Below are positions 10,167 through 59,220 of a stretch of DNA of 64,000 nt, piece by piece. Position numbers and translations under genes: made by a program. A model generated the notes under the pieces. It ran no database searches, was not told the DNA's origin, and worked only from the letters and a program-made list of their open reading frames with translations. The DNA is from Squalus acanthias (taxonomy: Eukaryota), in contig CM059430.1 in assembly GCA_030390025.1 (NCBI GenBank), positions 47,306,001-47,370,000 on the forward strand, given 5' to 3'. Position 1 is the first letter of the stretch; every line of letters starts with the position of its first letter.

Positions 10167-11364
10167 AACTTTCGGAAAACACAAATCCTTTAGTCAAACA
10201 GCCATTTAGTGTTAAAGGCTCATCCCAAACAGTTTGCGAATAAGTGAACTCCCTGCCACCCCGGTCGCTGTGCGCAGCCTGTAACCTCTAATTAACGATG
10301 AAATGTTTTATCCATCTTAGTGGCTGTACAGAGTAGGGAAGAATATTTGCTCAGACATTCTTCAGATTCATTTTCAAATAATAATAATCCCCGATAGGTT
10401 GAAAAGCCCCGTTAAATGTCCACTGCTATTATTGCAAAAGGAGGTGGGGGGTGGCGAGGGAAGAGAGGACGGAGGGGAGGAGGTGGAAAGATATTTTATT
10501 TTTACAGCTTGTAACATATTAATGAAAAGGAAGCAGAAAGAAAGCAAGCAGAGGGAGATCAGTGCCTTTTATGCCCTTGTGCAGTATTGGAAGAGAAATA
10601 TTTCTAATTAGGACAGAAAAGGAAACCGGAGGCGGGTGTCCATAACCTGAACTCTCAAGTTTTATTTGGGGACAGCGTTTGACGCAGAGAGAGTACGTGA
10701 GCCGATTAAACATTCCACCTCCATTTGTACATTAGTTGCAATTAGAATGAATCTTTTTAAGTCCGAGTGTCTGCATGCGGTTACAGTAACGTCTAATACT
10801 ATTGCATATATGTTTGGAATTCCAAGCTGCGGAGTAGCAGATCACAGTTGTTGCAGCTGCCCCAGTGACTGACAGCTGAGGCCGGGTGGGAGACATACCA
10901 TTAGCACAAAGAGCTTCCTTCCCCTGCCCAGATCATTCTCTCTCTGTGCTGATAGCCTCGATCATTTGGTTTTACAATTCTTCATAGTAGCCAGATCGAG
11001 AGTACCACTGGAAAAGGCCTGGGGTGAAGGGGGAAGAGGGGGGGGTGTTAAAAATGGGGCTAAACATTCAAATAAAAACTCTTCAAAAAAAAATCATCCC
11101 TTTAATAACCCTTTCCTGCCTCTCAACACAGGATAAAAATGACAATGATAAAAATAACTGCTGTACAAAATTTAAACCCTGGAAACTTATTTATTTAGCA
11201 GATTTCAGCAGAGATGTGCTGCTTAACAAGACTGAGGCAGTTAACTCTCTGATCAGAATGGGCATCATGTTTAGTGTCCAACCATTGTTCAGTCTTGATT
11301 TGATGGGATAAATCCTTATACGTAAAATCTCCATTAATCGGAGCCCAGTGCTCATACAGATTAT

Positions 11365-11476
11365 ACGATAGCAAAATTCTGACGAAAGGTCATCGACCTG
11401 AAACGTTAACTCTCTTTCTCTCTCCACGGATGCTGCCTGGCCTGCTGAGTTTTTCCAGCGTTTTCTGTTGTTATTT
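11365..11476 (+). mobile_element. Short Penelope-like hammerhead element, copy A
   Basis: Family body GATGCTGCCTGGCCTGCTGAGTTTTTCCAGC. 14-bp TSD CTCATACAGATTAT at 11351-11364 and 11477-11490. Confidence 0.75.
11377..11411 (+). ncRNA. Hammerhead core with truncated stem I
   Basis: CUGACGA-A-AGGUC(AUC)GACCU-GAAACGUU^AACU. The 5' strand of stem I is reduced to 2 bp by the element junction. Confidence 0.55.
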
Positions 11477-13599
11477 CTCATACAGATTATGATGGGGACA
11501 CAAAGCAATACAGCACTTAAGAGGGAATCTCTCGGTAACCATTTATAAACAGGAATCTTTCAATTTGGACAGAAAACACTCCTGCAACTAATATGGAATC
11601 TCTCACCACTGTAGATGGAGGAAAAAAAGAACCATTTAGGCACAAGGATCAGAGAGATGCAGTAGACAGGAATCCTGGAATAGCAACAATTGAACACGAT
11701 TATAAATTCCACTGTCTGTGCAAAACTGGAAAGGGGGCGGCTGGAGGCGATTCTTTACACACCATACACGGAAAACCAAAAGTATCCCAAGTGAGAGAGA
11801 ATCCTATGTCCGTGGTACATGTGGGTTTAACAATGTTAAGAGTTTCAGCGATGCACACCAACTGACTTGACCAATATGGTGACCTTCTAGGGTAACGTCC
11901 TCGCTCTCCATTCCTCCCCCTCCCCCACCACAATGTCTGGTCCGAGACAGTGTATTCTTGATGTGTGCCGCACTATCAGCAGCGATAATCAAATCAGTGT
12001 TTTTATTTTTTTTAAATGGACAGACTCGCAGAATGCAATCTCCAAAAACACCAGTAAAAATCCCAGAATATCATGTACGAAAAATGGAATGCAGATTATT
12101 CAATCACAACCCTGGTTAATCTGATCCAGCTCCACTCTGCTAGTTACCATCAGTCCTGCAGTTTCTAAAGGTTTGGACTGCACCAAACTGAAGTCACCAG
12201 CTAGTTGCAGCTTCATTCAATGGTTATTTGTTCCTTTACTGGACCATATAGGTTCCCTCAAACTCGTTCTAAATCACTTGATTAAAGATCATTTCATTTG
12301 TATCTAATGATTGCCTCTTTGCTTTTGTGCTTGTATAATTTTGCAAATCTAAAATACAAATGTCTGTTAAACAAATGGCATGCTGTTGTAACTTATAGAC
12401 CAATAATTACTATTAGTTCAGCGTGCTTTTAATTTTTGCTTCTTCCTCTGGGTCTCTATTCCTCTTCCATTTGCTGCTAGACAAAGTTCCCAGCTCCCAG
12501 AGCTTTAGCAGCTGCTCTGATGCCAGCCACCAGGAGGCATGTATCAGCATTGCTGAGCGACGCACCCTTTGATTTTACGCCCCCCTCCGTTACTCCAGTA
12601 CTCCATGGGTTCCACACATTCCAATACATCATGCATTTTACATGAATCCAATCGGTATACAGTAAAACACTGACTCGTGCCTATCTGGTTATTTCCGTAC
12701 AATGTTTGAAGAAAGTCTACTCCAGTCCAGTTGTGTTTTCTAAATGACTGAAAATTACAGTATAGTATACAGAGCACTACAAGAACCAACCTGGAGTTTT
12801 CCTAGGGTGGATTAATGTCTTGCATTTACATGCTATTAAAGGGCTTCATCTGTCAACCTCTCCTCAGCTGTTCACTGCAATATGCAGAGATACTAAATAC
12901 TTGGGAACTACAGCTTATGAGGAGGATACACAGTTCCTGAATAAATATTCATGGTTTATAGATGGAACTTCGTGTTCAAAGAAAACGTTTCAATTTGTAA
13001 TAAGAACAAATTTTAGCCCATGTGCCCAGAATACCGTAGGAGCTCAAAGTGGGAGCAAGTAACCTCTGCACAGTAACCACCTTTTACAAGGGAAGCGATT
13101 GCATGGTTTTACCTCTATTTAAGAGTGAGAACGCAGAAGGCTGTAAACAGTGAACTAAGAAATTTAGCATTTTAATGGCGTGTTCAGCATATTCAATTAC
13201 ATTAACTGGTTTCCATTTTGCATTGAAAATCTTGCCCATTTAGGACTGGATGCTGATTTCCTCAATTGGTGGAAAGGCAGTGCGAGGAATCTGCAGCAAA
13301 ACTATTTTTTTTTAATAAAAGGTGTCCCCTCATGACATACAAATAAAATACATTCATTAAGGAAATGAAGGCAAAATTTTTAAATTCAAACCAGAGCACC
13401 CTTTAAATTAAACTTCCACTTCATACGAACCGAAGGCAAGGTGGTTAAAGGCCAACAATGGGATTCCTGAACGTGCACGGCTTATTTGCGGATGTGCTCT
13501 TTAGCTGGTGATGCGTGCAGTGAGGCAAAGGATGATGCCCTGATTGGCATTCGAGAGTGACCTCCCCAGAGAAAGGTCATCTGAAATTGGTCAGTTCTG

Positions 13600-14180
13600 G
13601 AGACCATTCAACCTCTGGAGGCAATGCAGAGAAGAGGCAATAGGATGTTCCCCAGTCTTCAAGGTCTGTTATAAGCAAAGACTGGAGAATGTTGGGCTCT
13701 TCAGCCTTGAAAGGGGACATTGAGAGATGACTTTATTGAGGTATACAAGATTGTAAACAGTATAGGAAAGGTAAATCAAGAAAATTAACTTTAAATTAAA
13801 CCAGTAAAAAAGGTAAATTTAGGACTGAGAGCAGGAAGTATTCCTTCACACAAAGAGACCAACATATGGAGTAGGCTCCCAGCTAGAGCAGTAGAGACAA
13901 AAACCCTGGAATCATTTAAGGACCAATTGGATGTTGCAACTGAGGGGACTTAATCATAGAATCCTAGAATAGTACAGCATAGAAGGAGGCCAGTCGATCC
14001 ATCAAGTCTGCGCCGGTTCTTTTGAAGAGCAATCCAGTTAGTCCCACTCCCCTGCTCTTTCCCCATATGCCTGCAATTTTTTCTCCTTCAAGTATTTATC
14101 CAATTCCCTTTTGAAGGCTACTATTGAATCTGTATCCACCACCCTATCAGGCAGTGCATTCCAAATCCTAACCAGTTCAT
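13600..14180. mobile_element. Two CR1 fragments (+ degenerate 13600-13950; - 3' end 13953-14180)
   Basis: Degenerate RT-tail motifs followed by a reversed ATCATAGAAT...GAAGGAGGCCA 3' end. Confidence 0.6.
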
Positions 14181-14799: not shown

Positions 14800-15205
14800 A
14801 GCTCATTGCTGCTGCTCTCACCTCGGAGTCAGAAGGTTGTGGGTTCAAGCCCCACACCAAGAATGAACATGTTATCTAGGCTAACACTTCAGTGCAGTAC
14901 TGCTTTGTCTTTCAGATGAGATGTTAAACGGAGGCCCAGTCTGCCCTCCCAGGTGGATGTAATAGATCCCACAGCACTATTTGAAGAGGAGCAGGGAAGT
15001 TCTCGCAGTGTCCTGGCCAATATTTATCCCTCAACCAAAAACAGATTAACTGTCATTCATCTCAAGGCTGTGTGGGACCTTGCTGTGCGTAAATTGGTTA
15101 CCACATTTGCCTAGAGCGACTACACTTCTGAAGCAATTCATTGGTTGTGAAGCGCTTTGAGGCATCCGGAGGATGTGAAAGGCGCTATATAAAGTCCTTT
15201 CTTTA
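14800..15205 (+). mobile_element. Deu-domain SINE
   Basis: B box GGTTCAAGCCC, GATCCCACAGCACTATTTGAAG core, GGCGCTATATAAA tail. Confidence 0.8.
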
Positions 15206-17305
15206 TTACATTGAGAAAGTCCGTCACATTTTTCCCCAACACACCTTGCTGTAATTAACTTGACAGATGATCTTTCACATGTAGATACAAGCACATCTTG
15301 AGCATATTTGCAATTATTTAACAAACTAAATAAATATTTACTGTCCTAAGCTTCATTAACATGTAAATGGTGCTCAGAAGAAAGGTTTCAGAAGGTTGGT
15401 TGCATGAAAAGGAATTCTTGCGTAATGCCAATTACTTATGTAATTTAGGCATCAACCTTAAAGAAGAGTTTGCGGGGAAAAATAAATGACTACCCTGTCA
15501 AATCAGCAGTAGGGCCTTTATTAGAATTGCCCACTTTAACATCAGTCTCATTTTCTGCACTGCTTTTGCTGAAGGTGGGCGTGAGTCAGTGCTAAGCGTA
15601 CAGAGTCAAAGTAATATGAGTCACGCTTCAACAATTCCAGAGTAACTGATTCATTCACATCAACGGAGGCAATGCAACAGTCAGACAACATTCCCCCAAA
15701 CCTTCCCAACATTTCGAAGGCGGCAAACCTTACAACATTCTGGTTTTCCGGCCTAAATGCCTCGGAGCCGAGCAACTAACTGATCATCTGGGAATTCAAT
15801 CAGCTCCGGACTTTCAAAGTCATTCCCAGTTCCACTAGTGAGCAGCAGCAGATTCCTTAGGAGATGGTATCACAGTTAATTTCACATCAGTTCAGGGTGT
15901 GCCTTTCTTTCCCCGTCTCCTGACATGCACAGTAAAACCCCCATTGTTTAGTGCTCTCTGCTGTGTGTCAATGACCCCATTAGAACCCAACTAAACTACA
16001 TTTTGGGGAACAGTGTTGCAATGCTATTTTCACAACACTGCTCCAAACAATGCAGGGCAGCCCATATCATCCAGAGCTTGCTCGACTCATCCCAACACGC
16101 TCACCTCCAAAAAGGGAGTCCCGCAATCATGTAAAATTAACCAGCCACAGTGCATCTCCATATTGATTTCGTAAAGACATACACTCGGGCTCGGGCTACA
16201 GAACAAACATTTAGTAGCTTGAAAGGATCCAATATATAAAAAAGGAGTCTCTATCTAACCATTTGACCTTTGAAACTATTTAGTGGGCCTGAATGTGCAT
16301 ATATTAAAAAAGTTGTTGAGGCCCAAATTGCATATACATGCATTACAGTTTTGCATATTCCACTCTATGTTCCCTGCTGCATTGTCAGGATTGTGGGTGT
16401 GGAGAGGGGGGGAGGAGAGGGAGAAGGAAGGTTATGCAACTGCCATCTGTAGCCAAAAACATCTGGAAGCTGGTAGTACAGTCAGCTAGTGGATTCTTGA
16501 CAGGGCTGATCTCTTGTCCTGCTCAGCCAAAGAGGTCTGCAGCCTCATCGTAGTGATGAATCGGCACAATCCTGGTAATCTCGCAGGTTGGGCAGTCGGT
16601 GGCCTCACTAGCAGTGCCACGTGCGATTCTTGGCACTGTACCCGGGAAGATGATATCCACCTTGAGGCAGCGGTGCGTCTGTCCGATCCATGGAACCCGA
16701 TTACAAATTGGTTTCAGATTCCCAAATACTTGAGCTATGGGCCTGATTATCGAATTAAATCAGACTGCCATCTCTAATGTGTAATCGCTGTGTGCAACGA
16801 TATACACATGTAAATACTGGAAGCGCCAGCAATAGAAAAGCATACACAAGGATTCTCCCCTATTAGGAGCTGCTTGTAGATGATAACGGTTTGAAAATTG
16901 TGTGCCTCTCCCCACTGCTTTCTTCACAGCAAGAGACAAATGTTGTTTACTGCACATGGTTAATTAGGAGAAGTAGCAACATTACTAGAAGTGACCAAGT
17001 ACACACTTACCTTTTAACAGGCCAACAACAGTTACTCTTTACGTTCCAGCTCCTACACCACAGTTATCCTCACAAGCGTTACCAATGCGTCACCAAAGGT
17101 CAAAGCGCTCAGCACATGGCCGACTGCATGCAGCACACACTGTGGGGCATTCAGCTGATGCCAGGGTGACCAGGCTGAATGAAGGCAGTGCTCCAGCGAG
17201 CTTCAAACCACAGGCAGGAGAGAGAACCTGCAGATAGTCCCAAGAACCGGAAATGGCACCAGTGCATCAGCAGCGGCCAAATGGCAACACCAGCTCGTGT
17301 GTGTA

Positions 17306-17743
17306 GCAGTCTCCCACCGACACAATGCAGCGCAGTCTCCCACCGACACAATGCAGCGCCGTCTCCCACCAACACAATGCAGCGCCGTCTCCCACCGACA
17401 CAATGCAGCGCAGTCTCCCACCGACACAATGCAGCGCAGTGTCCCACCGACACAATGCAGCGCAGTCTCCCACCGACACAATGCAGCGCCGTCTCCCACC
17501 GACACAATGCAGCGCCGTCTCCCACCAACACAATGCAGCGCCGTCTCCCACCGACACAATGCAGCGCAGTCTCCCACCGACACAATGCAGCGCAGTGTCC
17601 CACCGACACAATGCAGCGCAGTCTCCCACCGACACAATGCAGCGCCGTCTCCCACCGACACAATGCAGCGCCGTCTCCCACCAACACAATGCAGCGCCGT
17701 CTCCCACCGACACAATGCAGCGCAGTCTCCCACCGACACAATG
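17306..17743. repeat. 26-bp minisatellite, ~17 copies
   Basis: Unit GTCTCCCACCGACACAATGCAGCGC(A/C). Units start at 17309 and recur every 26 bp to 17725. Confidence 0.97.
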
Positions 17744-24210: not shown

Positions 24211-25383
24211 AAGAGTAATTCAGTATGAAAACTAAACTCAGTGTTTGAATGTGTGTTGGTAACATAACTTGAATGTACAGTTCACGGGTATTTTAAAAAC
24301 CCAACTTTCCTCAGTTACATTAAATACAGGAACAAAAAGCAGAAATAGCCTGACCTGCCTTGACCTCAAAAAGTAATGAGTAGCATATTATCGTCACAGC
24401 ATTGCATTTCCCCATCTGTTTGTGACGCATCATTAAATGAACCATATTACCAATTATTTTCCATTAAGGCTGAGTGCTAGCTCACCAGCTGGTTACTGGC
24501 TGTGACCCTTCTGGTTCTGACTAGGCTCCGTGCACTTTTTTCCCAGCACTTTCCTCTTATGTGAAAATTAGGATTAGAGACTTGAAAGACCCTTTTTAAA
24601 ATTTGTCTAAAATCTGAGTCCGCTCGCTTTGACGAAGCCTCAGTTGGCATTTTCCTGCTACTATCTCTTCTAGCTGCAAGTTTTAGCTGACTTTACAGAG
24701 AGTCTGAAGCCTTACCCCATACAGTACTGTGTTTCTACATCCATGCCCCATTTGCACAATACATGTGTCTGTGTACGCAGAGAACATCTGATTTACCATT
24801 GACAATCCACAAGATCAGTTTACTCTCAAAGATGGAGTATCATCACCGGGGGTCCCTTTTACAATTCAAACAATTAAAAGGAATTATGATTAATCTCAAC
24901 ATCCTTCCATTTCATTTCTATTTCTGTTTTGGTTTCTGAATGTTAAGTGCTGATGAGATCATCGAGGGCGGCTGGCTAGTTTAGAGTTACTGGAGCCCAA
25001 AAGTGAGTGGGAGATGAATTCACTTCAGTAGAGACAGTCATTAACCCAGGAGTGCTTCAGCAGTCTTGACATTGCAACTGAGTGTGTTTTATGCAGCGAG
25101 TTGTGATCTGGAATGCACTCATCTCCTGTCTGAATCGGGAAGTCCTCCCAGCCATTTTTCCCCAAACGATGCCATGGAGACTCATAAGAATTTAAGAACA
25201 CAAGAATTTAAAAACAGGAAAAGGCCATTAGGTCCAAGCAAGCCTTTCTCCCCATATCCTTCAATCCCTTCTCTCCAGAAACGCATCCAATTGTCTCGAA
25301 CTCATTTATACTGCCTACTTCAAATGACCTTTCATGATAACTTATTGCACAACTCCAGCTCTCCTTGACTTCCCTTCATAAAA

Positions 25384-25725
25384 GTGTCAGCCGTGTCTCA
25401 GTGGGTAGCACTCTTGCCTCAGAGTCAAAAGGTCATGGGTTCAAGTCCCACTCCAGAGACCAGAGCACATAATCTAGGCGGGCACTCCAGTGCAGTACTG
25501 AGGTGACATCTTTCACATGGGACGTTAAACTGAGGGCCCGTCTGCCCTATTAGGTGTATGTAAAAGATCCCACGACACTCTCGAAGAAAAATAGGGGAGC
25601 TCTTCCGGTGTCCTGACTAACATTTACCTGCTGCGTTTCCTACATTACAACAGTGACTACACTTCAAAAGTACTTCATTGGCTGTAAAGCGCTTTGAGAG
25701 TCCCGAGGTCGTGAAGGGCACTTTT
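25384..25725 (+). mobile_element. Deu-domain SINE
   Basis: Head GTGTCAGCCGTGTCTCAGTGGGTAGC, B box, core and tail. Confidence 0.8.
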
Positions 25726-25729
25726 AAAA

Positions 25730-26122: not shown

Positions 26123-27547
26123 ATACGGCATATTCCTAAGCTTCCAGTTTTAAAACTTGTGGTGCTTGACTATCTCACCTTCACCAGCAAATTATTTGGA
26201 TCAATTTGTCCATCCCTTTCATAATCTTAAAAACTCCAACTAGATCACTTCAAAACATCATCTTTTCGAAAGAAAACAAACCTTTTCTTCCTTACTTTAA
26301 TTCCTGTTACCAGGAATCATTTTCACTAGTTTCTGCATCCTCTCAAAAACAATAAAACCCTGCTCATGATTAAATGGCCAGAACTACTGTGGTTTGGCCA
26401 AAGTCATTGAAACCAGAGGGGGTCATTTTAATCTAAGCTGCCCAACAGGAGCGGGCAGTGTTCAGGTTGGACGCTCGTTTTAACCCTGCCCGATTTTACG
26501 CTCCATTGACTTCAATGGAGTTTGACCCAAACCGGTCCCATTCCCATCAGCCAGGTTAAATTCAAATTAAACCCAAAGTACCTTAATTGCCTTTTCTAAA
26601 ACTCTAGCTAAGAACTGTGTTGACACTTTTAAAGATGAATTAATTTATGTGAACAAAAAGAAAAAAAGACCTAAAGGACCTTAATTATATATATTTTTTT
26701 TACAAATGAGTTGTTTTTAAATGGGTTACTAGTTATGGTGGTGACTCTCTTTAACATGCTCCACAGTTAGAGAGACCACTCTAAGAACCCACTTAATGGC
26801 TGCTGTTTCTGTGATTGGCTAATTGAGCTAGATTTTCCCCTCCATTTTACTGCAGTTGCCTGTGGTAAGTTTGATGTGAAGGCACCCAATACTATGGAAT
26901 GATTAAAATTAATAATAATTACTTATTATTGGCTTATCTACTGACTTTACTTGTACACAGCTGTGTTGTTCATTGAATGAAGGTGGTGTCACCATGTCAT
27001 GTGCCTGAAGTAACATTTCTTTCATTTCATCGTAATGGATTCTACTATAGGAGTCAGTTTGCAGCTTTCTTTCTCCTTGGTGTACTTTAGGTGGCATTGT
27101 TTATGAAAGGAAACTCTAATATTAGGATCATATAACTGCATTCCCCCCCGCTGTGTGTTCCTGTCAATCCAGAGTCTGGCCCTAACTCCATGTAGCACAG
27201 GGTACCAGGTAGAGAAAGACAGGAACAACTGTCTTAAATTTGTAGAGTTTGAACAATGTAATTTCTAATCTGAAGCCTCCATGTTTTGAATGTACTATTT
27301 TAACTACAGGTGATCTTACCATCAGCTACCATCTTGGACAGTGTCATTACGATTAATAATCATTGAAAGACCATTCTGAGCCGTTACCACATCTCTACCC
27401 TCTCGAACAGGATGACAATGACTGATAAATGTGGGCATTCTCTTCCTATTTTCCGACAAATATTAATGGCAGACAAACTGTAGACACCATTTTTTTTTAA
27501 TAAAAGATGTGCCCCACTGGGTGGATCAGTTTATGTAATTCACTTAC

Positions 27548-28312
27548 TTTTCCTACTGGTTTTGTTCCTTCCCAATTCCTCTTTTCCAGGGAAGGAGGTA
27601 CCTGGTAGATGTCCTGCGATGGATTCATGGATGGAGGTATTTGGTAGATGTCCTGGGCTGGATTCATGGATGGAGGTACCTGATAGATATCCTGTCCAGA
27701 CCCCATAGATGGGGGTACCTGATAGATATCCTGAGGCGGACTCTTCGATGGTACCTGGTAGATGTCCTGGGATTGGTTCATCGACGGAGGCACCTGGTAA
27801 ATCTCCTGGGTTGGGTTCACGGACTGGGTCAACTGGCATTGAGATGTTGTCTTCTGATACAAGGTCTGTTGTTGCTGTTTTGTTGGAGTAACTGGGTACT
27901 TGTTTGACTGGTTCTGTAATGCAGGAGGAACCTGATACAAACTCTGCTGTACTTTGTTGGAGGAGGGCATCATATAGACATTGTCTCCCTGGGGTAGGTA
28001 TGCAGGGTGCATAGCTGTATACTGTGAGGATTGGGATGGCATTTGGTATACATTCTGTTGCTGGTAAGGCTGTGGTGATTGCGGGGTCTGTTGTGCTTGG
28101 CTGGAATTTGGCTGTTTTTTCTCATACATTCCCACTAGGATCTTTAAGCGGTTGCCAGGCACGATACCTTGTCGTCCATGTAATGAGCAGAGCCACCATC
28201 CATCTAAACCTCCTGTGTTACGTTCCAAAACTGTCATGATATCCCCTTTGCGAAATGTGAGTTCATCTGGTGATTCAGCCACATTGTCGTACAAGGCTTT
28301 TGCCAGTACATT
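27548..28312 (-). CDS. BCAR1: BCAR1/p130Cas internal coding exon: SH3 domain, Gln/Pro-rich linker and YQxP part of the substrate domain (255 codons, phase 0-0)
   Basis: Translation NVLAKALYDNVAESPDELTFRKGDIMTVLE...GWWLCSLHGRQGIVPGNRLKILVGMY...WEGTKPVGK matches the p130Cas SH3 and the end of the equivalent human exon (WEGTKPPAK). Acceptor ttatttttatttgtttcag (AG at 28314-28313) and donor GTAAGT at 27547-27542. Confidence 0.96.
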
Positions 28313-40084: not shown

Positions 40085-40120
40085 ATAATTTTGCTTTGAA
40101 AAATGAAGGTTTGGAGACTG

Positions 40121-40302
40121 AAACAACAACAGAAAATGCTGGTAACACTCAACCGGTCAGGCAGCATCGTGGAGAGAGAAACAAAGTTAAATTTAACTCT
40201 GTTTCTCTCTCCACGATGCTGCCTGACCGGCTGAGTGTTTCCAGCATTTTCTGTTGTTGTTGTTTCAAATTTCCAGCATTCGCAGTATTTTGCTATTGTA
40301 TT
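40121..40302. mobile_element. Short Penelope-like element, copy C (palindromic, two inverted arms plus tail)
   Basis: Inverted arms of ~70 bp centred on 40191/40192. 15-bp TSD AAGGTTTGGAGACTG at 40106-40120 and 40303-40317. Confidence 0.8.
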
Positions 40303-40707
40303 AAGGTTTGGAGACTGCCCTCCACCCGCCCAAAATAAAACGACTTTGGCTGTGAGCCATTCTTATTCCACTACTCATCATGGAGTGTTTTGTTTCCCGG
40401 TGGCAGGGATGTGGCCACCTAAAAATAAATAAAATCCCATTGCTGGTGATTCAGGTGCTGTGTTAATGCTGCCTCTGACCCTACTTGACTGGGTACCACA
40501 AATTAAATATACACAGCTAATCACAGGGTCAGACTGTTGGAAAAAAGTATGCAGTAACAAAACATGTTTGTGAAGAGTAAGCAGGGAACACTTTACAAAT
40601 TCACTTCTACCATTCACCCCCCCCCGCTCCCCCACTCGAGTGAGCAAATAGGGAGTTCAGGTGCCGTTTCCACCCTTCCCCCCACGATTTTCCATCCATT
40701 AAAGTAG

Positions 40708-41092
40708 AGTGGCAGCACTCTCGCTTCCAAGTCAAAAAATTGTGGGTTTAAGCCCCACTCCAGAGACTTGAGCACATAATCTAGGCAGACACTCCAGTGC
40801 AGTACAGAGGGAGCGCTGCACTGTTGGGAGGTGTCGTCAAACCGAGGTCCCTTCTGCCCTCGCTCAGGTTGTCATAAAAGATCCCATGACACTATTTCGA
40901 AGAAGAGCAGGGGAGTTCTCCCCAGTGTCCTGGCCAATATTTATCCCTCAACCAGCATCATTAAAACAGATTATCTGGTCATTATCTCATTGCTGTTTGA
41001 GAGAGCTTGCTGTGCGCAAAATTAGCGGCCGCGTTTCCTACTTTACAACAGTGACTACACTTCAAAAATACTTAATTGGCTGTAAAGCGCTT
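40708..41092 (+). mobile_element. Deu-domain SINE
   Basis: Head remnant, AAAAGATCCCATGACACTATTTCGAAGAAGAGCAGGGGAG core, truncated at GTAAAGCGCTTT. Confidence 0.85.
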
Positions 41093-41365
41093 TCTCTGGA
41101 GGTTCCATCGATGCCACGCTGAATTTATAAGCGCAGAAATTCAGGGCCATTGCGGTTTCAGCAACACCTGCAAGTTCAAGTTCTGGAACAGCAGCACTGC
41201 CGAGAGTTCACAACCACTCAGTCTGTGTTCAGCTGACTTTACCAACTAGAGACTCAGCAACACTGATCCAGAGTCAATTTGGAGCTGTTTTAGATTTGTT
41301 TGGTCCCCTTAATTTGAAAAAGTGGGGCTACGACTACAAGTCTGCTGGCAAGATTTAGTGGTGTG

Positions 41366-42047
41366 AATAGAAACATAGAAGATAGGAGCAGGAGATTCGG
41401 CTCCTCGAGCCTGCTCTGCCATTCAATGAGATCATGGCTGATCATCCAAATTCAGTACCCTGCCCCTGCCTTCTCCCCATATCCCTTGATCCCTTTAGCT
41501 TTAAGAAATATATCTAACTCCTTCTTGAATATATTTAATGAATTGGCCTCAACTGCCTTCTGTGGTAGAGAATTCCACAGGTTCACCACTCTCTGGGTGA
41601 AGAAATTCCTCCTCATCTCAGTCCTAAATGGCTTACCCCTTATCCTTAGACTGTGACCCCTGGTTCTGGACTCCCTCGCCATCGGGAACATCCTTCCTGC
41701 ATCTAGTCCTGTTAGAATTTTATAAGTTTCAATGAGATCCCCTCTCATTCTTCTAAACTCCAGCGAGTATAAGCCCAATCGACCCAATCTCTCCTCATAC
41801 GTCATTCCTGCCATCCCAGGTATCAGCCTGGTGAATCTTCGCTGCACTCCCTCCATGGCAAGAACATCCTTCCTCAGATAAGGCGACCAAAACTGCACAC
41901 AATACTCATGCTGTGGTCTCACCAAGGCCCTGTACAACTGCAGCAAGACATCCTTGTTCCTGTACTCGAACCCTTTTGCTACGAAGGCCAACATACCATT
42001 TGCCTTCTTAACCGCCTGCTGCACCTGCATGCTTACCTTCAGCGACT
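41366..42047 (-). mobile_element. CR1-clade LINE 3' fragment, relatively young
   Basis: Uninterrupted 192-aa ORF (EYCVQFWSPYLRKD, RRMRGDLIETYKI, RRNFFTQRVVNLWNSLP) plus 3' UTR. Confidence 0.92.
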
Positions 42048-42330
42048 GCCAGACACCAGTCTCCCCACATCCAAATTAAAATAAGGCCAATATAAAAACA
42101 GCTTTAAAATGGTCCTCATGTAACTTCCCTGGGGCTGAACTGATTGTCTGAATTGAAGCCCTTCACCTCCAGGATGAACCCTCAATTTACATGAAGCGAG
42201 TTTTTTGCCTTGTGGCCACTCAAAGGAACTAGCAAAGCTTGCCTGCTGAGGGTAATCCAGTTCAAAATCCAGTCATTTGAGGATGGGATTCAAAGTCTTG
42301 AGATGGGAGTCCAGTGCTCCGCAGCTAAAA

Positions 42331-42745
42331 TCACTGAGCCAGGATACCCCGAACCCTGGTGACCACCGAGCCAGGATACCCCGAACCCCGGTGACCACCG
42401 AGCCAGGATACCCTGAACCCCGGCGATCACCGAGCCAGGATACCCCGAACCCCGGTGATCACCGAGCCAGGATACCCCGAACCCCGGTGATCACCGAGCC
42501 AGGATACCCCGAACCCCGGCGACCACCGAGCCAGGATACCCCAAACCCCGGCAACCACCGAGCCAGGATACCCCGAACCCCGGTGATCACTGAGCCAGGA
42601 TACCCCGAACCCCGGCGATCACCGAGCCAGGATACCCTGAACCCCGGTGATCACCGAGCCAGGATACCCTGAACCCCGGTGATCACCGAGCCAGGATACC
42701 CCGAACCCCGGTGATCACCGAGCCAGGATACCCCGAACCCCGGTG
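42331..42745. repeat. 32-bp minisatellite, 13 copies
   Basis: Unit TCACCGAGCCAGGATACCCCGAACCCCGGTGA. Confidence 0.97.
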
Positions 42746-45934: not shown

Positions 45935-46410
45935 GGAACATAGGAAAAGGAGTAGACCATTTCGCCCTCAAGCCTGTCCCTCCCTTCAATTAGATCTATA
46001 CCTCAACTCCATTTACCCGCCTGTGCTCCATATCCCTTGATACCCTTACCCAACAAAAATCTGTCGATCTTAGTCTTGAAAATTTCAATTATCCCAGCAT
46101 CCACAACCATTTGGGGGGGGGGGGAAGAGAATTCCACATTTCCACTACCCTTTGTATGATGGAAGTGCTTCCTGATTTCACTCCTGAATGGCCTAGCTCT
46201 AATTTTAAGACGGTGCCCCCTTGTTCTGGATTTCTCCACCAGAGGAAATAGTTTCTTTGTATCTACTCTACTGAATTCCTTTATCATTTCAAATACCTCG
46301 ATTAGATCACCCTTCAACTTTCTAAACTCAAGGTAATGCAAGTCATGGTTATGCAAGCTGTCCTAACCTGTTAAGCCCCTGATATGGTTCTGCTTAATCT
46401 GCGCTTTATT
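45935..46410 (-). mobile_element. CR1 3' fragment
   Basis: ORF 46003-46356: LEFRKLKGDLIEVF...SRTRGHRLKIRARPFRSEIRK. Confidence 0.8.
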
Positions 46411-46734
46411 ATAATGTGCCACTTGCTGCCAGTGGCGCACTATCAATAGAAAAGTGCCTCAAGACTTGCTAGCTAAACCCTAGCTTTGTATTCATTCCAA
46501 AAAAGTAAAGCTACATTCATATATACGGACTCTCCTCAATAGCTCAATGAGTTTATCCAGGGAGTTGCTGTACCATACATAATCAGGAAGGCCCAGGTTC
46601 AATTCCCAGTAAATGTTGATTTCACTTATCCAAGCCAGGATGACATGTAGGACTCCTGCCACTAGCCTTCAACGCCCCTGGGTTTAGGGAGAGGAAACTC
46701 AGCCAGGGTTTCTCTTCCTCATCAATATTTTTCG

Positions 46735-46910
46735 TGGCCAATATTTATCCCTCAACCAACATGGCTAAAACAGATTATCTGGTCAGTATCTCATTGCTGT
46801 TTGTGGGAGCTTGCTGTGTGCAAATTTGCTGCCGCATTTTCTACATGACTACACTTCAAAAGTACTTCATTGGCTGTAAAGCACTTTATGGTGTCCTGAG
46901 GTCGTCAAAG
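46735..46910 (+). mobile_element. Deu-domain SINE 3' part; its tail resumes at ~47311
   Basis: GGCCAATATTTATCCCTCAACC...TGAGGTCGT, with GCTATATAAATG after the nested element. Confidence 0.75.
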
Positions 46911-46911
46911 G

Positions 46912-47310
46912 TTTTTTTCATTCATTCACGGGATCTGGGCATCGCTGGCAAGGCCGACATTTATTGCCCATCCCTAATTGCCCTTGAGAAGGTGGTGGTG
47001 AGCCGCCTTCTTGAACCACATAGGGCAGTTAAGAGTCAACCACATTGCTGTGGGTCTGGAGTCACATATAGGCCAGACCAGGTAAGGAAGGCACATTTCC
47101 TTCCCTAAAAAGGGCATTAGTGAACCAGATGGGTTTTTTTTTTTTAATGACAATCCGGTAGTTTCATGGTCACCATTACTGATACTAGTTTTTAATTCTT
47201 TTTTATTTAATTTGAATTTAAATTCCCCAGCTGCCTGTGGTGGGATTTGAACTCACATCTCTGGATCATTAATCCAGGCCTCTGGATTACTCGTGCAGTA
47301 ACATAACATA
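46912..47310 (-). mobile_element. Different tRNA-type SINE nested in the Deu-SINE tail
   Basis: Minus-strand B box GAGTTCAAATCCC (~47243-47255) and an A-rich (TGAA)n end at 46912-46928. Confidence 0.6.
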
Positions 47311-48606
47311 GATGCTATATAAATGAAAGTTTTTTTTTCCATCATTATCTTAGCTCCTACGGGTAGTGAGCATTAGGTGAGGGCAGGTTTGTACTTGGCT
47401 ATGGCTAACCCACAGTTGAATAGGCCACCAACACTCACTGGCAAAGTGCGCATAATAGCTATTTGGACAAGATAATAGAAGACAACTGACAACAATGTCA
47501 GGAACCTCAACAAGGAATTAACGTGTTTGGGGTGGCGAAAGATTAGTTTTAAGTTGCATTTGCTGTATAATCTAAGATGCACGCAAGCCTGATTAAAATA
47601 CTTGACATTGTTTTACTAAATGTTCTTTATGCAGGAAAGCGGTTTCATTAAATTTACATTTCTGGTCACTTGTACATTAGGAGTTGTAAAGAGGTACGTG
47701 TAGCACACACACAGAGGCTTAAATTACACCCATTCTAGTCAGCACCTTGACTGTAGTCTGACACCTGCCTTTTGTGATTCGTCAGCTGGGGATGAGCTGC
47801 GATTTCACACCCTCCAGGCATAAAACTCACACCACCGTCACACCGACACACACGCCAGCTCCCACAACCTTCCCCTGCGGTTATAGGTGACTACCTTCAC
47901 ACAGATCTGCCAAGGTTTCTGGAACCCTTCTTCCCCCCCCCCCCAAAAAAAAACTTACCAAAACGGTTCTTTATAATTTGCATGAGATCCCAACCAAAGG
48001 AGCAGTACATGCCTGTGGGGGCCGTGCACTCCACTGTCAAGTCATACGAGTCTCTGTTAAACCTACTCGTTACAATAAACTTTGTAGCAAAACAGATACA
48101 CTTGAAAATGTATTGCCTCTGCTTTTCAAGAACTAAGTATGTAAAATGACCCCCACCTTTTCAACATTTAGCTACTTTCCTCAACAGACTGCTTTACCGG
48201 TGAATGCTGACTGTTCTCTTTGAATGTCACCAGCACAAGGACACTTTTTATCAGTACGGAGAGATCGAAGTTGACCTTTTTTATTGACATGTTGCAGAGC
48301 AAGAACAGGACACAAACTTTTGTAAATCGGACCCCGAGTTTTCAAAACAGAAAGCCCCCAGAGGTAGAAGCAGACCCTGGTTATGCTCAAATCACTCCGT
48401 TTGACTGTAATTTTTTTTCCAAAAAAAAAAGAGCGAGAACCACAGCAGGAGGATAAATAGCCTCTGCAATCTCTACAGTGAGGACCTTCCTTCAGACAAC
48501 GGCACAGCCCAGCAACATAAGAGAAAAGGGTTACAATCCTAACCCTGCCAGACACTACAGCAGCATTCACGAAGCACTGGGGGTCACATATACGGTACAC
48601 ACTTAC

Positions 48607-48621
48607 CAAGTAGTTCATCAT
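48607..48621 (-). CDS. BCAR1: BCAR1 first coding exon segment (M)MNYL
   Basis: Minus strand reads ATG ATG AAC TAC TTG|GTAAGT, a phase-0 consensus donor. Splicing to 28312 gives MNYLNVLAKAL, matching human MNHLNVLAKAL. Implied intron is about 20.3 kb. Confidence 0.85.
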
Positions 48622-48699
48622 TGATTTTTTTTTGTCCCGTGATGTGAAAATCACTCCAGGTCCCCAGCCCCTGAAAATAAAACTCCTTTACTGCTCTCC

Positions 48700-51356: not shown

Positions 51357-51625
51357 ATGGATGTAAAAGATCCCATAGCACTATTTCGTAGAAGAGCAGT
51401 GGGGATCTCCCTGGTGTCCTGGACAATATTCATCCCTCAACCAATACCACTAAAACAGGTTATCTGGTCATTATCACATTGCTATTTGTGGGACCTTGCT
51501 GTGCGCACATTGGCTGCAGCGTTTTCTACATTACAACAGTGACTACACTTCAAAAGTACTTCATTGGCTGTAAAGCGCTTTGCGACATCCTGAGGTCGAA
51601 GAGGCGCCAAACAAAAGCAAGTATT
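51357..51625 (+). mobile_element. Deu-domain SINE 3' part
   Basis: GGATGTAAAAGATCCCATAGCACTATTTCG core through to the tail. Confidence 0.8.
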
Positions 51626-54548
51626 TCTGTTTTTTTCTTTGTAGAGATATATGGGCAGTAGAGCTAGCATCTCCAGCCATCTGGAACTGTGGCACTAATG
51701 GAATATCACAAGCATTGGCTCTGGAAATTCCCATCTGCTCTTTTCCCATTATTTCCCCATACAACAGTAGACTGCACTACTGATCTACGAATGTATAAAA
51801 TTTTTATCCCACTTAATTTACGGTATATACCTAATGGAAAGAGAAGGAGCCCAGCCACAAAACAAAATTAATCCCTCCCCCCGCTACATAAATTGAGCAC
51901 TCAAATCAAGTTAGACATTACTCAATAAAATGGGGACAGGCCATAGGCTCCAGCAGTACCCCAGGGAACTTTATAACCAAGTTCAGTTACAATCAAGGTG
52001 ACAAATCTCATGAAGTCTTGTATTGTTTTATATAGTGGATTTCGAAAATACATCAGAAACATAATGACACAATAATGCATTTCAGACAGGGCAAGATCAT
52101 TGGTCCATCCAACCTGCTCATCCAATTATATGCTCTCTCTCATAAAATAGGTCTATAATATCATTTATCAAATTTAATGATCATGGATTATTTCAGATGC
52201 CAGGAACTTATCTATTTTGTTTTTGAAATGCCTTAGCATTTCTTGTTTGACCACATGTACTCAGTTTGTTCCACACGTTGATCACCCTTCTGCTAAAGAA
52301 ATTCTATCGGAACTGCTTATTTCCATTAATTTCCTTGTCTTGAATCGATGCTGTGGTTCAGGAGTTCTGTATACAGCAGAAAAATATACCTGTTTACAAC
52401 TTACCAAACTCCTTCTTCATTTTATAAACTATTACCAAGAGAGGAAAGTCCCAGGGTTCAAGATCACTCTTCACAGCTCACTCCTCTAAATTCTGGTATC
52501 AATCTCGTTAGCCTCTACTTAACCCTGTCCAATTACATAGTATACCTTTTTAAATAGAGCAGCCAAAACTGGACGCCATACTCCAGATATGGTGTTTAAT
52601 TTCAAAATTACCACGTTTAGTAGAAATATTACACCCCTTTCTAAAATGTAAACCGTGGGAGAGTCAAAGAGTTAAGGGTGATACTTAACGGCTTCATAGC
52701 TTGAACTATTAACAAGATGATAGTGATGGACTACCAGGTCCTAGAAATTTTGCAGGGCTACCACTGGCCTCCCCGTAACTTCTGCGGGAGGGTTGTTTAT
52801 CTAGGGTTTCCAAAGTTACAGCGGGAGACCAGTGGTAGCCCCCATGGAATCTCTGGCTCCCTGGTCCGCTGAGGTCTCTTCAATGACAGTGGCTTCAGAG
52901 AGCCCTAATGATGCACTGCCAGTATACAGCAGCTGCCGCATGATTAATCTCTTCCCAAGTAGTACTATTGAAAGGTTCTGTTTGCAAGTCATTAATTCCA
53001 GATGGCAATGTCCTTTTAAATGCATCTTGAGGCTTTCTGCAGTTACTATGGACACCTGACTGTGCTCAGTGATTGCTGCGGCAGAATTTACGTAGAGCTG
53101 GTTAATAAAAAGTAATCCAAATTGTTCAATCTGTATAATTATAATCACCAGTTCCATACTTCACTTTAGTAAAGCCAAGCAAGCCCATGGAATGCACTGT
53201 TCATTTACTTAATCTTCCAACCAGATATTCAACTCAGGATGAACTTGGTTGAAGAGCTATCATTGTACTTAGCCAACAATGTATGGCATCCATTAATTCA
53301 GTTGTGGGGAGTTGTAAATGCTTTCCCCAGGGTGTCTTAACAGGAGATGTCCCTCTCAGTGGGTTACCCTGGGAAAATGCAGCATTTTAAACATAGACTC
53401 TTCTTCCTTGGTTACATTTAGATTTCCTCTTAACATTAACAAGAAAACTATAAGAGAACAGGTCACTCAGTTTATTGTTATGGTGATTACATTTGAAACC
53501 AGCAGCTTTAGCATATTGCATGCAGTGCCTAAAGCAACACTACAATCTAAAAATAAAAGTACTTTTTTAAATGAAGCTCAAGGTCTACAGTTTTACTTAG
53601 CCAGAAGTAATGGCTGTACATTAAGTTGCCATCGTGCAGGATTTTATTATTTCCCCTGTGGTGTATAAGCTTTATAGAAGTTTCATCAACATAATAGCAG
53701 TTTTCTTTATTAATTTAGATTTTTTCCCCATACTTTTACTGTTGCACACCCTCCTCAGCAAACACAAAATGAAATTCTTTATCCAACTATGTTGTCAGCT
53801 GGTGTGGTGTGGTGGGTGCTGTCTCTCGGCATGCCTTCAAGAGGGAGCTGGACTGGTTTTTGACTGGGGCAGAGATCGCATCAACTAGAAGGTAAGTGCC
53901 TTTATTGGTAAAACTTGGTCCATGTGATCTCCTGGACTGGTTTTGATCGCTTAAGGGGGTTGGAGAGGAATATTCCAGGGTATTATTTCCTTTATAGGTC
54001 CAGGGTTTTTCTCTGTGTTTTCACCTCTCCTAGGAGATTACATGGATGGGGTAGGCGCGGGGGTAAAGAGTGTTTAGGCATAATGTTTCAGCCATCATGA
54101 GGTGTGGCCAGGCTTGATGGCGCAGCTGATCTTTGCCTGCCCGTCACTTTTGTATGTTCATATGAAAGAGACATTTTTCCTTAGTTTTTAATTTCATCCC
54201 CCTTTACTCCTTTTCACGAGTAGCCAGGCGATCTGTGTCGAGACCTCTCCCACTTGAACTCATTCTCTTGGCTTCTTCCTAACCGGGGGACTCTCTCCTC
54301 CTTCAGCTGGCTGACATTTAGCACTCGCTGCCCATTCAGCCGAGAGGGGCAGGAGGGAGACGAGCCTGCGGCCCACCATTTCGTGCCGTGGGCCTAATGC
54401 GTCAGTGGGCCAACACCCTGCCACCAGTAGCTTTACTTTAGTTTTTTTTAAACAGGCTTCGCTTCCTTTAGGGAGTTCTTTTCTCATGTTTCGTTTTGCC
54501 AGCCTGGTTTGTAGAATCGGCAGAGTTAGTAGATAACCTTTCCCTATC

Positions 54549-56890: not shown

Positions 56891-57434
56891 AGTGATAATA
56901 ATGACCACATAAGATTACAAGGCCCATTCCATCTATTCCACCCAACATCGCCCACCAGAGAATATTACATCCTCCGCATGAGCGCAGACTGCTCCTAATT
57001 CTTAGGTTCTTATTATGTTCTCATCACAAGGAGTTGAAAGGATTTTTTAAAATATCTGTAATGTAGAAACTGATTATGTATCTTGCTCTTGTACTAGTTT
57101 GGGAATCTGGTCGGACTGATTTAGAATGGTGGTATAATGGTCAGGATGTCTGATCTCCAGCAATCCAGGAGAAGGGGGGAGGGGGCGGTGTATGTGATCC
57201 TGATAATTTGACGTGGAGAATATGATCATTTGTGGCAGGAAGGGGTTAAAATCTCTGATTCCAAGCAACTTTTGGTGGGTATGCATCTACGGAGAGAGAA
57301 CTTGTCCATTGCCCGATTTCCCTTCCCCTTACCCACACAAACACACTCACTTGACAGTATTGTTTCATGTAATTGCCAGCCGTTACTGGGTAGTGAGTTA
57401 GATGTACTGTAAAGCACACTAATATTACTCTGTC

Positions 57435-57570
57435 GATAGCAAAATACTGCGGATGCTGGAAAATTGAAACAACAACAGAAAACGCTGGAAAAACTCAGCA
57501 GGCCAGGCAACATCCGTGGAGAGAGAAACAGAGTTAACGTTTCAGGTCGAAACCCTTCGTCAGAACTGAG
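57435..57570 (-). mobile_element. Short Penelope-like hammerhead element, copy D (with tail)
   Basis: Same body as copies A-C, with the ~32-nt tail (TTTCCAGCATCCGCAGTATTTTGCTATC) and an intact hammerhead. A purine-rich stretch follows on the + strand. Confidence 0.75.
57532..57567 (-). ncRNA. Minimal type I hammerhead ribozyme motif (GUU triplet)
   Basis: Minus strand AGUU-CUGACGA-A-GGGU(UUCG)ACCU-GAAAC-GUU^AACU. Confidence 0.72.
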
Positions 57571-58602
57571 AAAAAAAAGCAGGAAATGAAACAGATAAAA
57601 AAGCAAGGGGGAGGAATAAAAGATCAAACACGAGAAGGGAAACTGAAAGCAATGAAGATGAACAAGGTTGAAGAGCCACAATACACTATTAAAGATTTGT
57701 GTTCATTTGTAAAATTAGCCCGCAGAAGAAACAATACCATGAATGCAGAAGTTCACATCCCACTGCATCATTTCCATGTAAACCACATACAAGTCCGAGG
57801 ACAGTCAAGGACAAGTCAAGAGATAACGTAACCCTTTAATATGTCACTCTGCTACGCTGTCTATCTCATTATCTCTAAATTCAGCACAATTGAAATTCAG
57901 CCCCATGTGGTTCTTCCAAGAGAAAAAGGAAGCTGAGGGAGGTAGTTCCATTTAAATGGAGCTATTTGCTCCTGGGCTTTTTACTCTCTCACAAATGTCA
58001 ATGTCTTTGTCATTATGTGCAAGGCCATTAAGCATCAGTGGGAGAGGATACCAAACCCAGCAGCCTGCATTTTTACAACAATGGAACTAACGACACAGTC
58101 CTGCCACTTTTGACTGGAAATTCTTCAAACGCAATCAGATCAATCGCATCCAATTGAAATGTAACCTGAAGTAATCTGCCTGAGCACTGGGACTGTACTG
58201 GGAAAAGCCAAATCCCAACGTTATCAGTTTTTGGGTGAGATTTGGGCATCAGTTACAGGTTCATGGCCTTTACTGAATCTGACTACTGGCGATATTCTGG
58301 AACAAAGAGCAGCTGTTGGTTCATAACATGTTGTCCGATGTCTGCAAAGGTCTGATTTGAGCACGTGTGCAAAGTCAGGTGCTGACGAGACCAATGTCCT
58401 TGTGCAAAACCAGTGAAGAATTAGTCTTCCAATGCAAAAGTAATAACTTGCATCATATTGCTTTAGTTTCTATTTTACTGGCGGACTTTTGTCAGTTACT
58501 GGTCCTGCTGTTTATTGATCCCACTTCTTCCTTCCGAGCGCATGTTATGGTGCGCTGGAATAGAAGACCTTACAACTACCACCCTGACTTCAACCATTAC
58601 TT

Positions 58603-58692
58603 AGGTCATCGACCTGAAACGTTAACTCTGTTTCTCTCTCTACAGATGCTGCCTGACCTGCTGAGTATTTCCAGCATTTTCTGTTTTTATTA
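58603..58692 (+). mobile_element. Short Penelope-like element, copy E (5' truncated within the ribozyme)
   Basis: AGGTCATCGACCTGAAACGTTAACTCTG...CCAGCATTTTCTGTTTTTATT. Lacks CTGANGA. Confidence 0.7.
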
Positions 58693-59099
58693 CTTTTATT
58701 CTGTTTGGAGACTGCCAGCCACTTTCCAAGATTCTAAGAAGGGATCCAGATGAAAAAAAGCAAAGGAAAATGAAGCGGAAATTTGTTAAAATTCCACTAT
58801 TTTGTAAGCCATTGCACAATAAATGCAATAACATCTTCACGCTGACCACAGAGGTTGAGAGTTTAAAGTTTTTGTCGCAACTTCCCACAAACCCTCCCCA
58901 TCCGTCTCATCAATACACAAAACTTTTTAACAAGCAGCAGCTCTTTGTGAATAAGGAGACAGCCCAGGGCAACACAAAATGGAACACATCCATCAACGAG
59001 TCACAGGTAAAAGTGAAGAACACAACAATAATTAGTATGCCTGCATCATTTACATCAACAGTGCAAGATTGATTCTATTCACCGGAAATAGAGAGAGAG

Positions 59100-59220
59100 A
59101 AAAAACCCGGCAAACGCTGGAAACCTGACACAAAAAGAGAAAATGCTGGAAGCATTCAGCAGGTCAGTTAGTATCGGTAAGGAAAAATAAAGTTTCCGAT
59201 ATAACCCTTCATCAAAACTG
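59100..59220 (-). mobile_element. Degenerate copy F of the same family
   Basis: GAAAATGCTGGAAGCATTCAGCAGGTCAG body and a decayed TTGATGAAGGGTT...GAAAC core. Confidence 0.5.

Follow-up and report, generated by a model that had tools for sequence, protein, structure and literature searches.

Short hammerhead-bearing repeats in and near BCAR1 of Squalus acanthias resemble truncated Penelope-like insertions

Introduction

A tail, an inverted pseudo-LTR (pLTR) and target-site duplications (TSDs) have been described for Penelope-like elements, or PLEs (PMC3846280, PMC8557442), and in the rotifer Adineta the TSDs are 8–10 bp long (PMC3846280). A pLTR by itself is able to mobilise DNA in trans (PMC3846280). 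An Anolis PLE uses unprocessed RNA, and in the Anolis Poseidon element PAc the two ends that bound the tail are two reverse-transcription start sites (PMC11167929). The minimal hammerhead ribozymes of PLEs are mostly single motifs that, in the words of PMC4209133, are ‘probably related to truncated PLEs’. PLEs have expanded in shark introns (10.1101/443036).

Here we analyse a 64-kb stretch of the Squalus acanthias genome (the window), for which the original prediction described a family of tiny hammerhead-bearing, Penelope-like elements scattered through BCAR1, and proposed that they are a non-autonomous ribozyme-SINE or retrozyme-like family. We find that the pattern is real and mostly ordinary, and that its likely class, Penelope-like, is already known.

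Results

All six of the related elements predicted at 90–180 bp are present in the window, with lengths of 89–182 bp, in or just upstream of BCAR1. A profile built from them recovered seven arms at the six loci with E-values from 7e-23 to 5e-43; this search is partly circular because the same loci built the profile. The next-best match in the window had an E-value of 0.058, and the best in a reversed-window control reached only 8.9. All four runs examined contain the family in very high abundance; summed depth was not taken as copy number. The host gene is marked by an SH3-containing exon (27545–28312, minus strand), 98% identical to a sawshark BCAR1, and by a short first coding exon of the MMNYL form with a GT donor (48607–48621, minus strand). 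Copies 1–3 are indeed within BCAR1, whereas copies 4–6 lie upstream of the first exon found.

Copy 1 is bounded by a 14-bp TSD (11351–11364 and 11477–11490; all TSDs are given on the plus strand). Its predicted start at 11365 is correct for the element, but the original prediction overlooked that the 5′ side consists of an inverted 12-nt arm (11365–11376, minus strand) corresponding to the tip of the tail: 11 of 12 letters agree with the tail end of copy 4, and an 11-mer of this arm occurs only at 11365–11376 and 57434. The main arm (11377–11476, plus strand) contains the hammerhead core (11379–11407), with a predicted cut at 11407/11408, and the body, and has no tail. Copy 2 (32624–32742, minus strand) is 97% like copy 1 and lies sense to BCAR1. 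It has a 20-nt upstream tract, a complete minimal hammerhead (32688–32724, with a GUC cut triplet) and a body without a tail, and its 13-bp TSD stands at 32611–32623 on the 3′ side of the element and at 32743–32755 on the 5′ side. Copy 3, between the halves of a 15-bp TSD (40106–40120 and 40303–40317), joins an inverted arm (40121–40191, minus strand), which is body only, starts about 2 nt ahead of the predicted cut and lacks the tail, to a direct arm of body and tail (40192–40302, plus strand). The two arms are identical at 67 of 70 letters and meet in a perfect 14-bp palindrome (40185–40198).

Copy 4 (57433–57581, minus strand) comprises a pyrimidine tract, a complete minimal hammerhead (57532–57567) whose stem II is closed by a G.U pair and capped by a UUCG loop, the body and the full tail; its 5′ boundary is uncertain. 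Copy 5 (58603–58691, plus strand) starts at stem II, and so lacks CUGAUGA, and has a body and no tail. Copy 6 (59100–59230, minus strand) is old (67–73% identical); it retains the tail, and its core has decayed to UUGAUGA with deletions.

Three loci carry a complete minimal type I hammerhead motif, for which cleavage is putative. The full minimal-hammerhead descriptor, a check that had been proposed for this DNA, matched three times in the window, always within the family (3/6 loci), and never in 100 dinucleotide shuffles. The loose pattern CTGANGA..GAAAC alone was not significant, with four matches in the window and four reached by 7 of 100 shuffles. The other proposed check, with Rfam hammerhead models, gave no match in the whole window nor at copies 2 and 4. 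The core from CUGANGA to GAAACGUH was found in three copies as predicted, but the AGUU that should pair with AACU precedes it only in copies 2 and 4; stem I is accordingly 4 bp in these two copies and only 2 bp in copy 1. Stem II is present in the MFE fold and stays paired while differing between copies, as had been claimed, but its changes are one-sided (A-U to G.U, C-G to U.G), and none of nine stem pairs changed on both sides among only five sequences. No variant falls in 11377–11403 among the variants listed from the four-run comparison. The hammerheads lack stem III and have an extra base after A9 and a palindromic 15.2-16.2 pair, two features that PMC4209133 lists for the minimal hammerheads of PLEs. 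In place of G10.1-C11.1 there is A-U in copies 1, 2 and 5 and G.U in copy 4. The cut site lies inside a GTTAAC palindrome.

The 3′ ends of the copies are of two fixed kinds, with or without a tail of about 32 nt. Four arms in the window terminate at one shared body end, while the direct arm of copy 3 and copies 4 and 6 have the tail, which bears out the prediction of a common stop point and an occasional tail; the long arms are thus three tailed and four tail-less, to which the 12-nt tail tip of copy 1 is added. Both forms occur in all four runs, with ends at 11474–11477. By contrast, the 5′ ends in the window vary (-22, -2, +8 and +27 from C3). Many copies seem to begin not at the cut site but a little before the hammerhead, within about 20 nt of it. 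Upstream of the core, the cross-species consensus weakens and is faint by about -17 to -19 (agreement 0.41–0.43). Ends pile up at 11377 (849–912 per run), a pile that is partly the edge of the reference. Copy 2, which starts at -22, matches this consensus at 13 of 19 letters, and its first 10 nt are those of the tail start. No 5′ end at the cut site was present among the 24 listed of 703 loose-end rows, and loose ends at 11415–11419 were seen in 59–126 contigs in three runs. The contig data favour junctions near the reference, and therefore long copies are under-counted.

Inverted truncated arms are found at the 5′ side of copies 1 and 3, and in both the arrangement is head-to-head with the tail on one arm only. 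In related species, nine joints link opposite strands, at variable junctions, and three run head-to-tail, each seen in one contig; none of the six loci in the window is even partly tandem.

The TSDs of 13–15 bp predicted for three copies were confirmed at copies 1–3: only 2 of 400 random pseudo-elements had a TSD of at least 13 bp. A 7-bp candidate at copy 5 was not significant (16/400 by chance), and no TSD was found at copies 4 and 6. All three related species searched (organisms B, C and D) have an empty site for copy 1 with a single copy of the duplication; the junctions skip 126 letters, and 14, 11 and 14 letters fit both sides. Copy 1 is therefore a proven insertion, and the claim that the family is mobile is supported.

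No reverse transcriptase (RT) or GIY-YIG match was obtained in 104 frames near the copies, although truncated copies would lack the ORF anyway, and no ORF is attached at any of the six loci. Protein searches with the module peptide, which are weak tests, revealed no PLE ORF. The first gave no match; the second gave five, namely three unrelated repeat proteins and two short spurious ORFs of the same repeat; the single match of the third was a horn-shark RNF14 isoform and not a partner. DNA pattern scans of viral and prokaryote contigs found nothing. In metagenomes, one scan was empty and another returned 10 loci, all chance 21-mer matches. Since no tRNA-like Pol III head was detected (ARAGORN, 0 genes; no Rfam tRNA match at the loci), the family, as judged from its sequence, does not match tRNA-derived SINEs. 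Several other candidate features were rejected. Rfam miRNA matches at copy 3 fell below the gathering score and are explained by the palindrome. A splice acceptor ahead of the ATG of the body was discarded because most copies read CGG, not CAG. A branch point in the upstream consensus was also rejected, since copy 2 reads CCAGC at that position and the consensus is biased by AT-rich flanks. The variation of N7 speaks against an ORF start at the AUG of the core, and the open frame across body and tail is too short to count.

Discussion

We propose that these repeats are probably short insertions of one hammerhead module with an optional tail, most plausibly the pLTR end of a PLE, copied by the RT and GIY-YIG endonuclease of that element. 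The Penelope-type reading and the minimal hammerhead of the original prediction are supported, the anatomy being as in PMC3846280, PMC8557442 and PMC11167929. By analogy with the biochemistry of the Anolis PLE (PMC11167929), the endonuclease would nick both target strands, and the RT would initiate internally on the RNA, at either of two positions separated by about 32 nt, so that copies come out without or with the tail. Synthesis may then halt early, often just upstream of the hammerhead. If both nicked strands primed, one per site, the product would be two arms joined head-to-head, only one of them tailed, as in copies 1 and 3. Most solo copies would likely be made from uncleaved RNA. The hammerhead is likely a passenger in solo copies, because without stem III it would need a partner copy, and probably the PLE protein, to cut.

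Several observations weigh against this explanation. No RT or GIY-YIG partner was found, G10.1-C11.1 is replaced, two-sided covariation is absent from the five sequences, and the TSDs are longer than those of rotifer PLEs. The upstream fade would be expected from a discrete short unit no less than from truncation. For copy 3 in particular, an uncleaved template is at odds with the start of both arms at the predicted cut site.

The view of the original prediction, minus rolling circle, would be that short masters of about 120–150 nt, SINE-like and derived from a pLTR, form a dedicated non-autonomous family mobilised in trans by a PLE protein. The apparent start of many copies within about 20 nt of the core, where the consensus fades, the fit of copy 2 to that consensus, the lack of attached ORFs and the ability of pLTRs to act in trans (PMC3846280) would all agree with this. 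We nevertheless consider it unlikely, if a serious contender, as the 5′ ends in the window spread over -22 to +27, there is no tRNA head, and the contig data under-count long copies. Somewhat more doubtful is the idea that each short copy is a run-off product complete in itself and did not arise by random truncation. The PLE enzyme would prime at start sites inside the upstream pLTR of the transcript and run off the 5′ end of the RNA some 20 nt ahead of the hammerhead, so that a SINE-like family would be mass-produced in cis from an ordinary autonomous mRNA. The inverted copies would be built by an enzyme dimer that primes on both target strands, one at each start site, and copy 3 would record a template cut by the ribozyme in vivo.

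A general role for cleavage in setting the template 5′ end, with copies starting at the cut site, is very unlikely. In copy 3 the two arms each start no more than 2 nt from the predicted cut, and the loose ends at 11415–11419 may include such copies. However, this concerns one of six loci, the GTTAAC palindrome could guide a fold-back junction without cleavage, and no 5′ pile occurs at 11407/11408 among the loose ends listed. In addition, two misfolded monomers (2 x -9.6 kcal/mol) are predicted to be more stable than the active dimer (-11.1 kcal/mol), and unprocessed RNA serves the Anolis PLE (PMC11167929). Equally hard to sustain is a non-LTR retrozyme, in which monomers from self-cleaving tandem arrays are circularised and reverse transcribed. 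The head-to-tail joints in relatives, the hammerhead tandem repeats of one chondrichthyan genome (bioRxiv 10.64898/2026.07.22.740005) and the opening 10 nt of copy 2, which equal the tail start as could happen with a circular template, point in that direction. Against it, no locus in the window is tandem, the units are mostly below the 150–450 bp of retrozymes, whose hammerheads are canonical (PMC7229834), Rfam hammerhead models do not match, copies end at the fixed body and tail ends and not at the cut site, and the template of copy 1, so similar to copy 2, included the whole tail. The ribozyme-SINE or retrozyme claim is not supported, given the lack of tandem copies in the window, the variable 5′ ends and the resemblance to a truncated PLE pLTR end. 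Least credible of all is an unrelated short repeat (a MITE or a LINE 3′ end) that looks like a hammerhead by chance: the missing Rfam match and covariation and the palindromic copy 3 would suit it, but the descriptor found nothing in shuffled sequence, four of six loci have no terminal inverted repeats, and the variable-length TSDs, tail and inversions fit PLEs.

The repeats matter mainly for annotation, because the family is very abundant in sharks and was active in the recent past. Insertions confined to one lineage make good phylogenetic markers where the empty sites are clean. The wealth of tiny copies framed by TSDs also offers a natural record for probing PLE mechanism: the point at which the RT stops, the possible pairing of the two start sites on opposite strands, and any cleavage of the template by the hammerhead in vivo.

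Compared with known systems, the repeats are most like 5′-truncated, endonuclease-positive PLE insertions (PMC3846280, PMC8557442, PMC8969392) in their optional tail at one end, TSDs, variable 5′ ends, head-to-head inverted truncated arm with a palindromic junction, and hammerhead inside the terminal module. They differ in having no ORF attached or found, in measuring only 89–182 bp, and in TSDs of 13–15 bp against the 8–10 bp of Adineta. Like the metazoan PLE minimal type I hammerheads described in PMC4209133, whose main text gives no shark example, theirs have a CUGANGA and GAAA/UH core with the extra base after A9, a short stem I, no stem III and a palindromic ACGU for dimer pairing, and are mostly single dispersed motifs; unlike those described there, they have A-U or G.U, not G-C, at 10.1-11.1, and a stem II of 4–5 bp. 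As in PAc (PMC11167929), the hammerhead is followed about 70–100 nt later by two alternative ends bounding a tail, whereas no protein or ORF start was recovered for the shark family. Like the shark repeats, metazoan non-LTR retrozymes (PMC7229834; bioRxiv 10.64898/2026.07.22.740005) are small, non-coding, equipped with a type I hammerhead and related to PLE pLTRs. In contrast to retrozymes, the shark copies are smaller and not tandem, their hammerhead is minimal and not canonical, and their ends do not fall at the cut site.

The six copies and evidence of insertion

Six related elements had been noted, and all six loci were present in the window, starting at 11365, 32624, 40121, 57435, 58603 and 59100 (copies 1 to 6). 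In an alignment along the ribozyme strand, identity was 84-97% for the five loci that are better preserved and 67-73% for copy 6. A profile search of the window recovered seven arms at these six loci, with no other match below E 0.05; the reversed-window control gave E 8.9. The noted target-site duplications (TSDs) of 13-15 bp were also found, as copies 1, 2 and 3 are flanked by 14, 13 and 15 bp, respectively, and a TSD of at least 13 bp arose by chance in 2 of 400 random windows. No TSD was found at copies 4 and 6, and the 7-bp candidate at copy 5 is at chance level. The flank of copy 5 (58703-58716) matches the TSD/flank of copy 3 (40306-40319) over 14 bp with an E-value of 0.13, which is likely due to chance.

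For comparison across species, contigs from 4 of 24 listed sequencing runs (organisms A-D) were aligned to 11130-11729. One contig each from organisms B, C and D runs directly from 11350 to 11477 and leaves out 126 bases; the letters that fit either side number 14, 14 and 11, respectively. These joins are the empty site of copy 1 carrying a single TSD copy, and thus the insertion is proven. In organism A, the right junction of copy 1 was present without differences and the left flank was uncovered. At 11230, at a distance of 120 bp from copy 1, 18 additional bases are present in three related species, which points to a small deletion in this lineage. Between 24,381 and 43,354 contig records, which are no measure of copy number, aligned per run. 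Because their depth is concentrated on the element, the family is abundant in all four organisms. It also extends to another shark lineage, since an annotated RNF14 isoform of the horn shark has an N-terminus (residues 2-35) that corresponds to a tailed copy (24 of 34 residues identical in a protein search). This start from a repeat peptide is either an exonisation or a gene-model artefact.

The hammerhead motif

Positions follow the established hammerhead numbering and NUH rule. Our descriptor combined the core, stem II, a palindromic 15.2-16.2 pair and UH. As first noted, it matched three copies (1, 2 and 4), with no match in 100 shuffles of the window; the loose core pattern on its own was not significant. 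The CUGANGA box is missing from copy 5 and the core from copy 3, and copy 6 has decayed. The proposed stem I pairing before the core stood for copies 2 and 4 (4 bp), but amounts to just 2 bp in copy 1. Stem II does differ between copies and stay paired, but the changes are one-sided; no two-sided change was found in the nine pairs among five sequences. Two other species have the copy 4 form as well (72 and 86 contigs), and thus it represents a subfamily rather than a private mutation. In contigs of the four runs, position 17 changes from U to C in up to about 8% of depth, and position 16.1 is absent from the variable positions listed.

The usual G10.1-C11.1 pair is absent, and an Rfam search of the window and of copies 2 and 4 returned no hammerhead match. 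Predicted folds contain stem II, with the core mispaired to the ACGU segment. Under an energy model that ignores core contacts, two misfolded monomers are predicted to be more stable than the active dimer. This would fit the low, dimer- or protein-dependent activity of hammerheads in Penelope-like elements (PLEs), as described in the available text of PMC4209133, PMC11167929 and PMC6765202.

Ends of the copies

Relative to core position C3, the 5' ends lie at -22 in copy 2, -2 in copy 1, +8 in copy 5 and +27 in copy 3. In the four runs, loose 5' ends accumulate at 11377 (849-912 per run), which is the start of the main arm of copy 1 and also the reference edge. None fell at the predicted cut site (11407/11408) among the 24 of 703 loose-end rows listed. 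Letters before 11377 agree at 0.41-0.43 over 30 positions, equivalent to about 3-5 positions of common sequence on average under the assumptions made. A common upstream consensus can be followed as far as about -17 to -19; copy 2 agrees with it at 13 of 19 letters and extends no further. The pattern suggests a start no more than about 20 nt upstream of the core for many copies, but it is a hint only, because long copies are under-counted when contigs break in young repeats. Copy 3 is a counter-example: both its arms begin at the predicted cut, although this is a single locus whose cut site is itself palindromic. In the portion of PMC2377424 available, the Drosophila Penelope transcript starts in the pseudo-LTR (pLTR), a short distance ahead of an intron that reaches the hammerhead at its 3' end; for this reason, run-off from an upstream pLTR would be plausible in the shark.

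There are two 3' end points, separated by about 32 nt: the body end and the tail end. As originally noted, four copies share one end point, the body end (copies 1, 2 and 5 and the inverted arm of copy 3), and the tail is present in only some, being reached in the direct arm of copy 3, copies 4 and 6, and the 12-nt inverted tip of copy 1. Both inverted insertions combine one tail-ended with one body-ended arm. The copy 3 arms likely came from one template, because they differ at only 3 of 70 positions and have common changes absent in other copies. Tailed and tail-less ends were both seen in the four runs, as were nine opposite-strand joints (in six of them, one arm ends at 11377-11379) and three head-to-tail joints, each in one contig.

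As many as three occurrences of the motif TTT(C)CAGC were seen per module (32732-32741, 32640-32647, 57455-57491, 59110-59230), lying immediately upstream of the hammerhead, some 15 nt before the end of the body and some 20 nt before that of the tail. The motif could serve for recognition ahead of each start site, or be a remnant of an old duplication. Copy 2 opens with 10 nt that are identical to the start of the tail.

Genomic setting

The SH3-domain exon of BCAR1 lies at 27545-28312 (minus strand); its best protein matches are elasmobranch BCAR1, with 98% identity to that of sawshark, and the window contains no other large BCAR1 exon. At 48607-48621 (minus) there is a short alternative first coding exon (MMNYL) that carries a GT donor. 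About 400 bp downstream of it, ~48170-48270 (minus) resembles the N-terminus of horn-shark isoform X4 and then reaches a stop. The copies had been described as scattered through BCAR1. This holds for copies 2 and 3, which lie in the intron separating the two exons, and by inference for copy 1, downstream of the SH3 exon, as the window shows no later exon. Copies 4-6, however, lie upstream of the first coding exon found; they are intronic only for an isoform with a further-upstream first exon, and none such was found in the window. In BCAR1 pre-mRNA, copy 3 is predicted to form a 70-bp hairpin (40122-40261, 96% paired), and copies 4 and 5 form an inverted pair of 83 bp, 1058 nt apart (57468-57550 with 58609-58691). 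Both may be substrates for double-stranded RNA editing.

Other repeats include minisatellites with periods of about 52 bp (17306-17743) and 32 bp (42330-42745), detected by self-alignment offsets. Another dispersed SINE-like family of 200-400 bp has at least nine copies (1188-1628, 5345-5698, 9503-9756, 14815-15207, 25383-25722, 33718-33968, 40710-41093, 46732-46911 and 51358-51640). At 47232-47296 there is a weak tRNA match (27.9 bits). Pieces of a LINE reverse-transcriptase C-terminus, probably CR1-like, occur at 25-1096, 41377-42075, 45940-46362 and 59229-59640, and one adjoins copy 6.

Comparison with known elements

The module's peptide yielded no PLE ORF in three protein searches, none of 104 frames lying up to about 3 kb upstream of the copies contained an RT or GIY-YIG domain, and the viral, prokaryote and metagenome DNA collections scanned held no relatives of the module. 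Thus, the tie to an autonomous PLE rests on anatomy. The part of the literature searched contained no earlier description of this shark family. The accessible text of bioRxiv 10.64898/2026.07.22.740005 reports hammerhead tandem repeats in one chondrichthyan, and that of 10.1101/443036 and PMC8455134 an expansion of PLEs in whale-shark introns. These repeats are real and ordinary in kind.

The suggestion of a retrozyme-like family was not borne out: non-LTR retrozymes, as portrayed in the available part of PMC7229834, have tandem units and a canonical hammerhead, whereas the six copies in the window have neither. Unlike tRNA-derived SINEs, which carry a tRNA head, the copies showed no tRNA-like head when one was sought. 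Judged by its anatomy, the shark module appears to behave like a truncated PLE end. In the available text of PMC11167929, the two tail boundaries of an Anolis element serve as start sites for reverse transcription, cleavage and extension take place on both DNA strands, and the main template is uncleaved RNA. The PLE signatures described in the accessible parts of PMC3846280, PMC8557442 and PMC8969392 are an optional tail of 30-40 nt, an inverted 5'-truncated copy, a palindromic junction and a TSD, and the shark copies show the same signatures.
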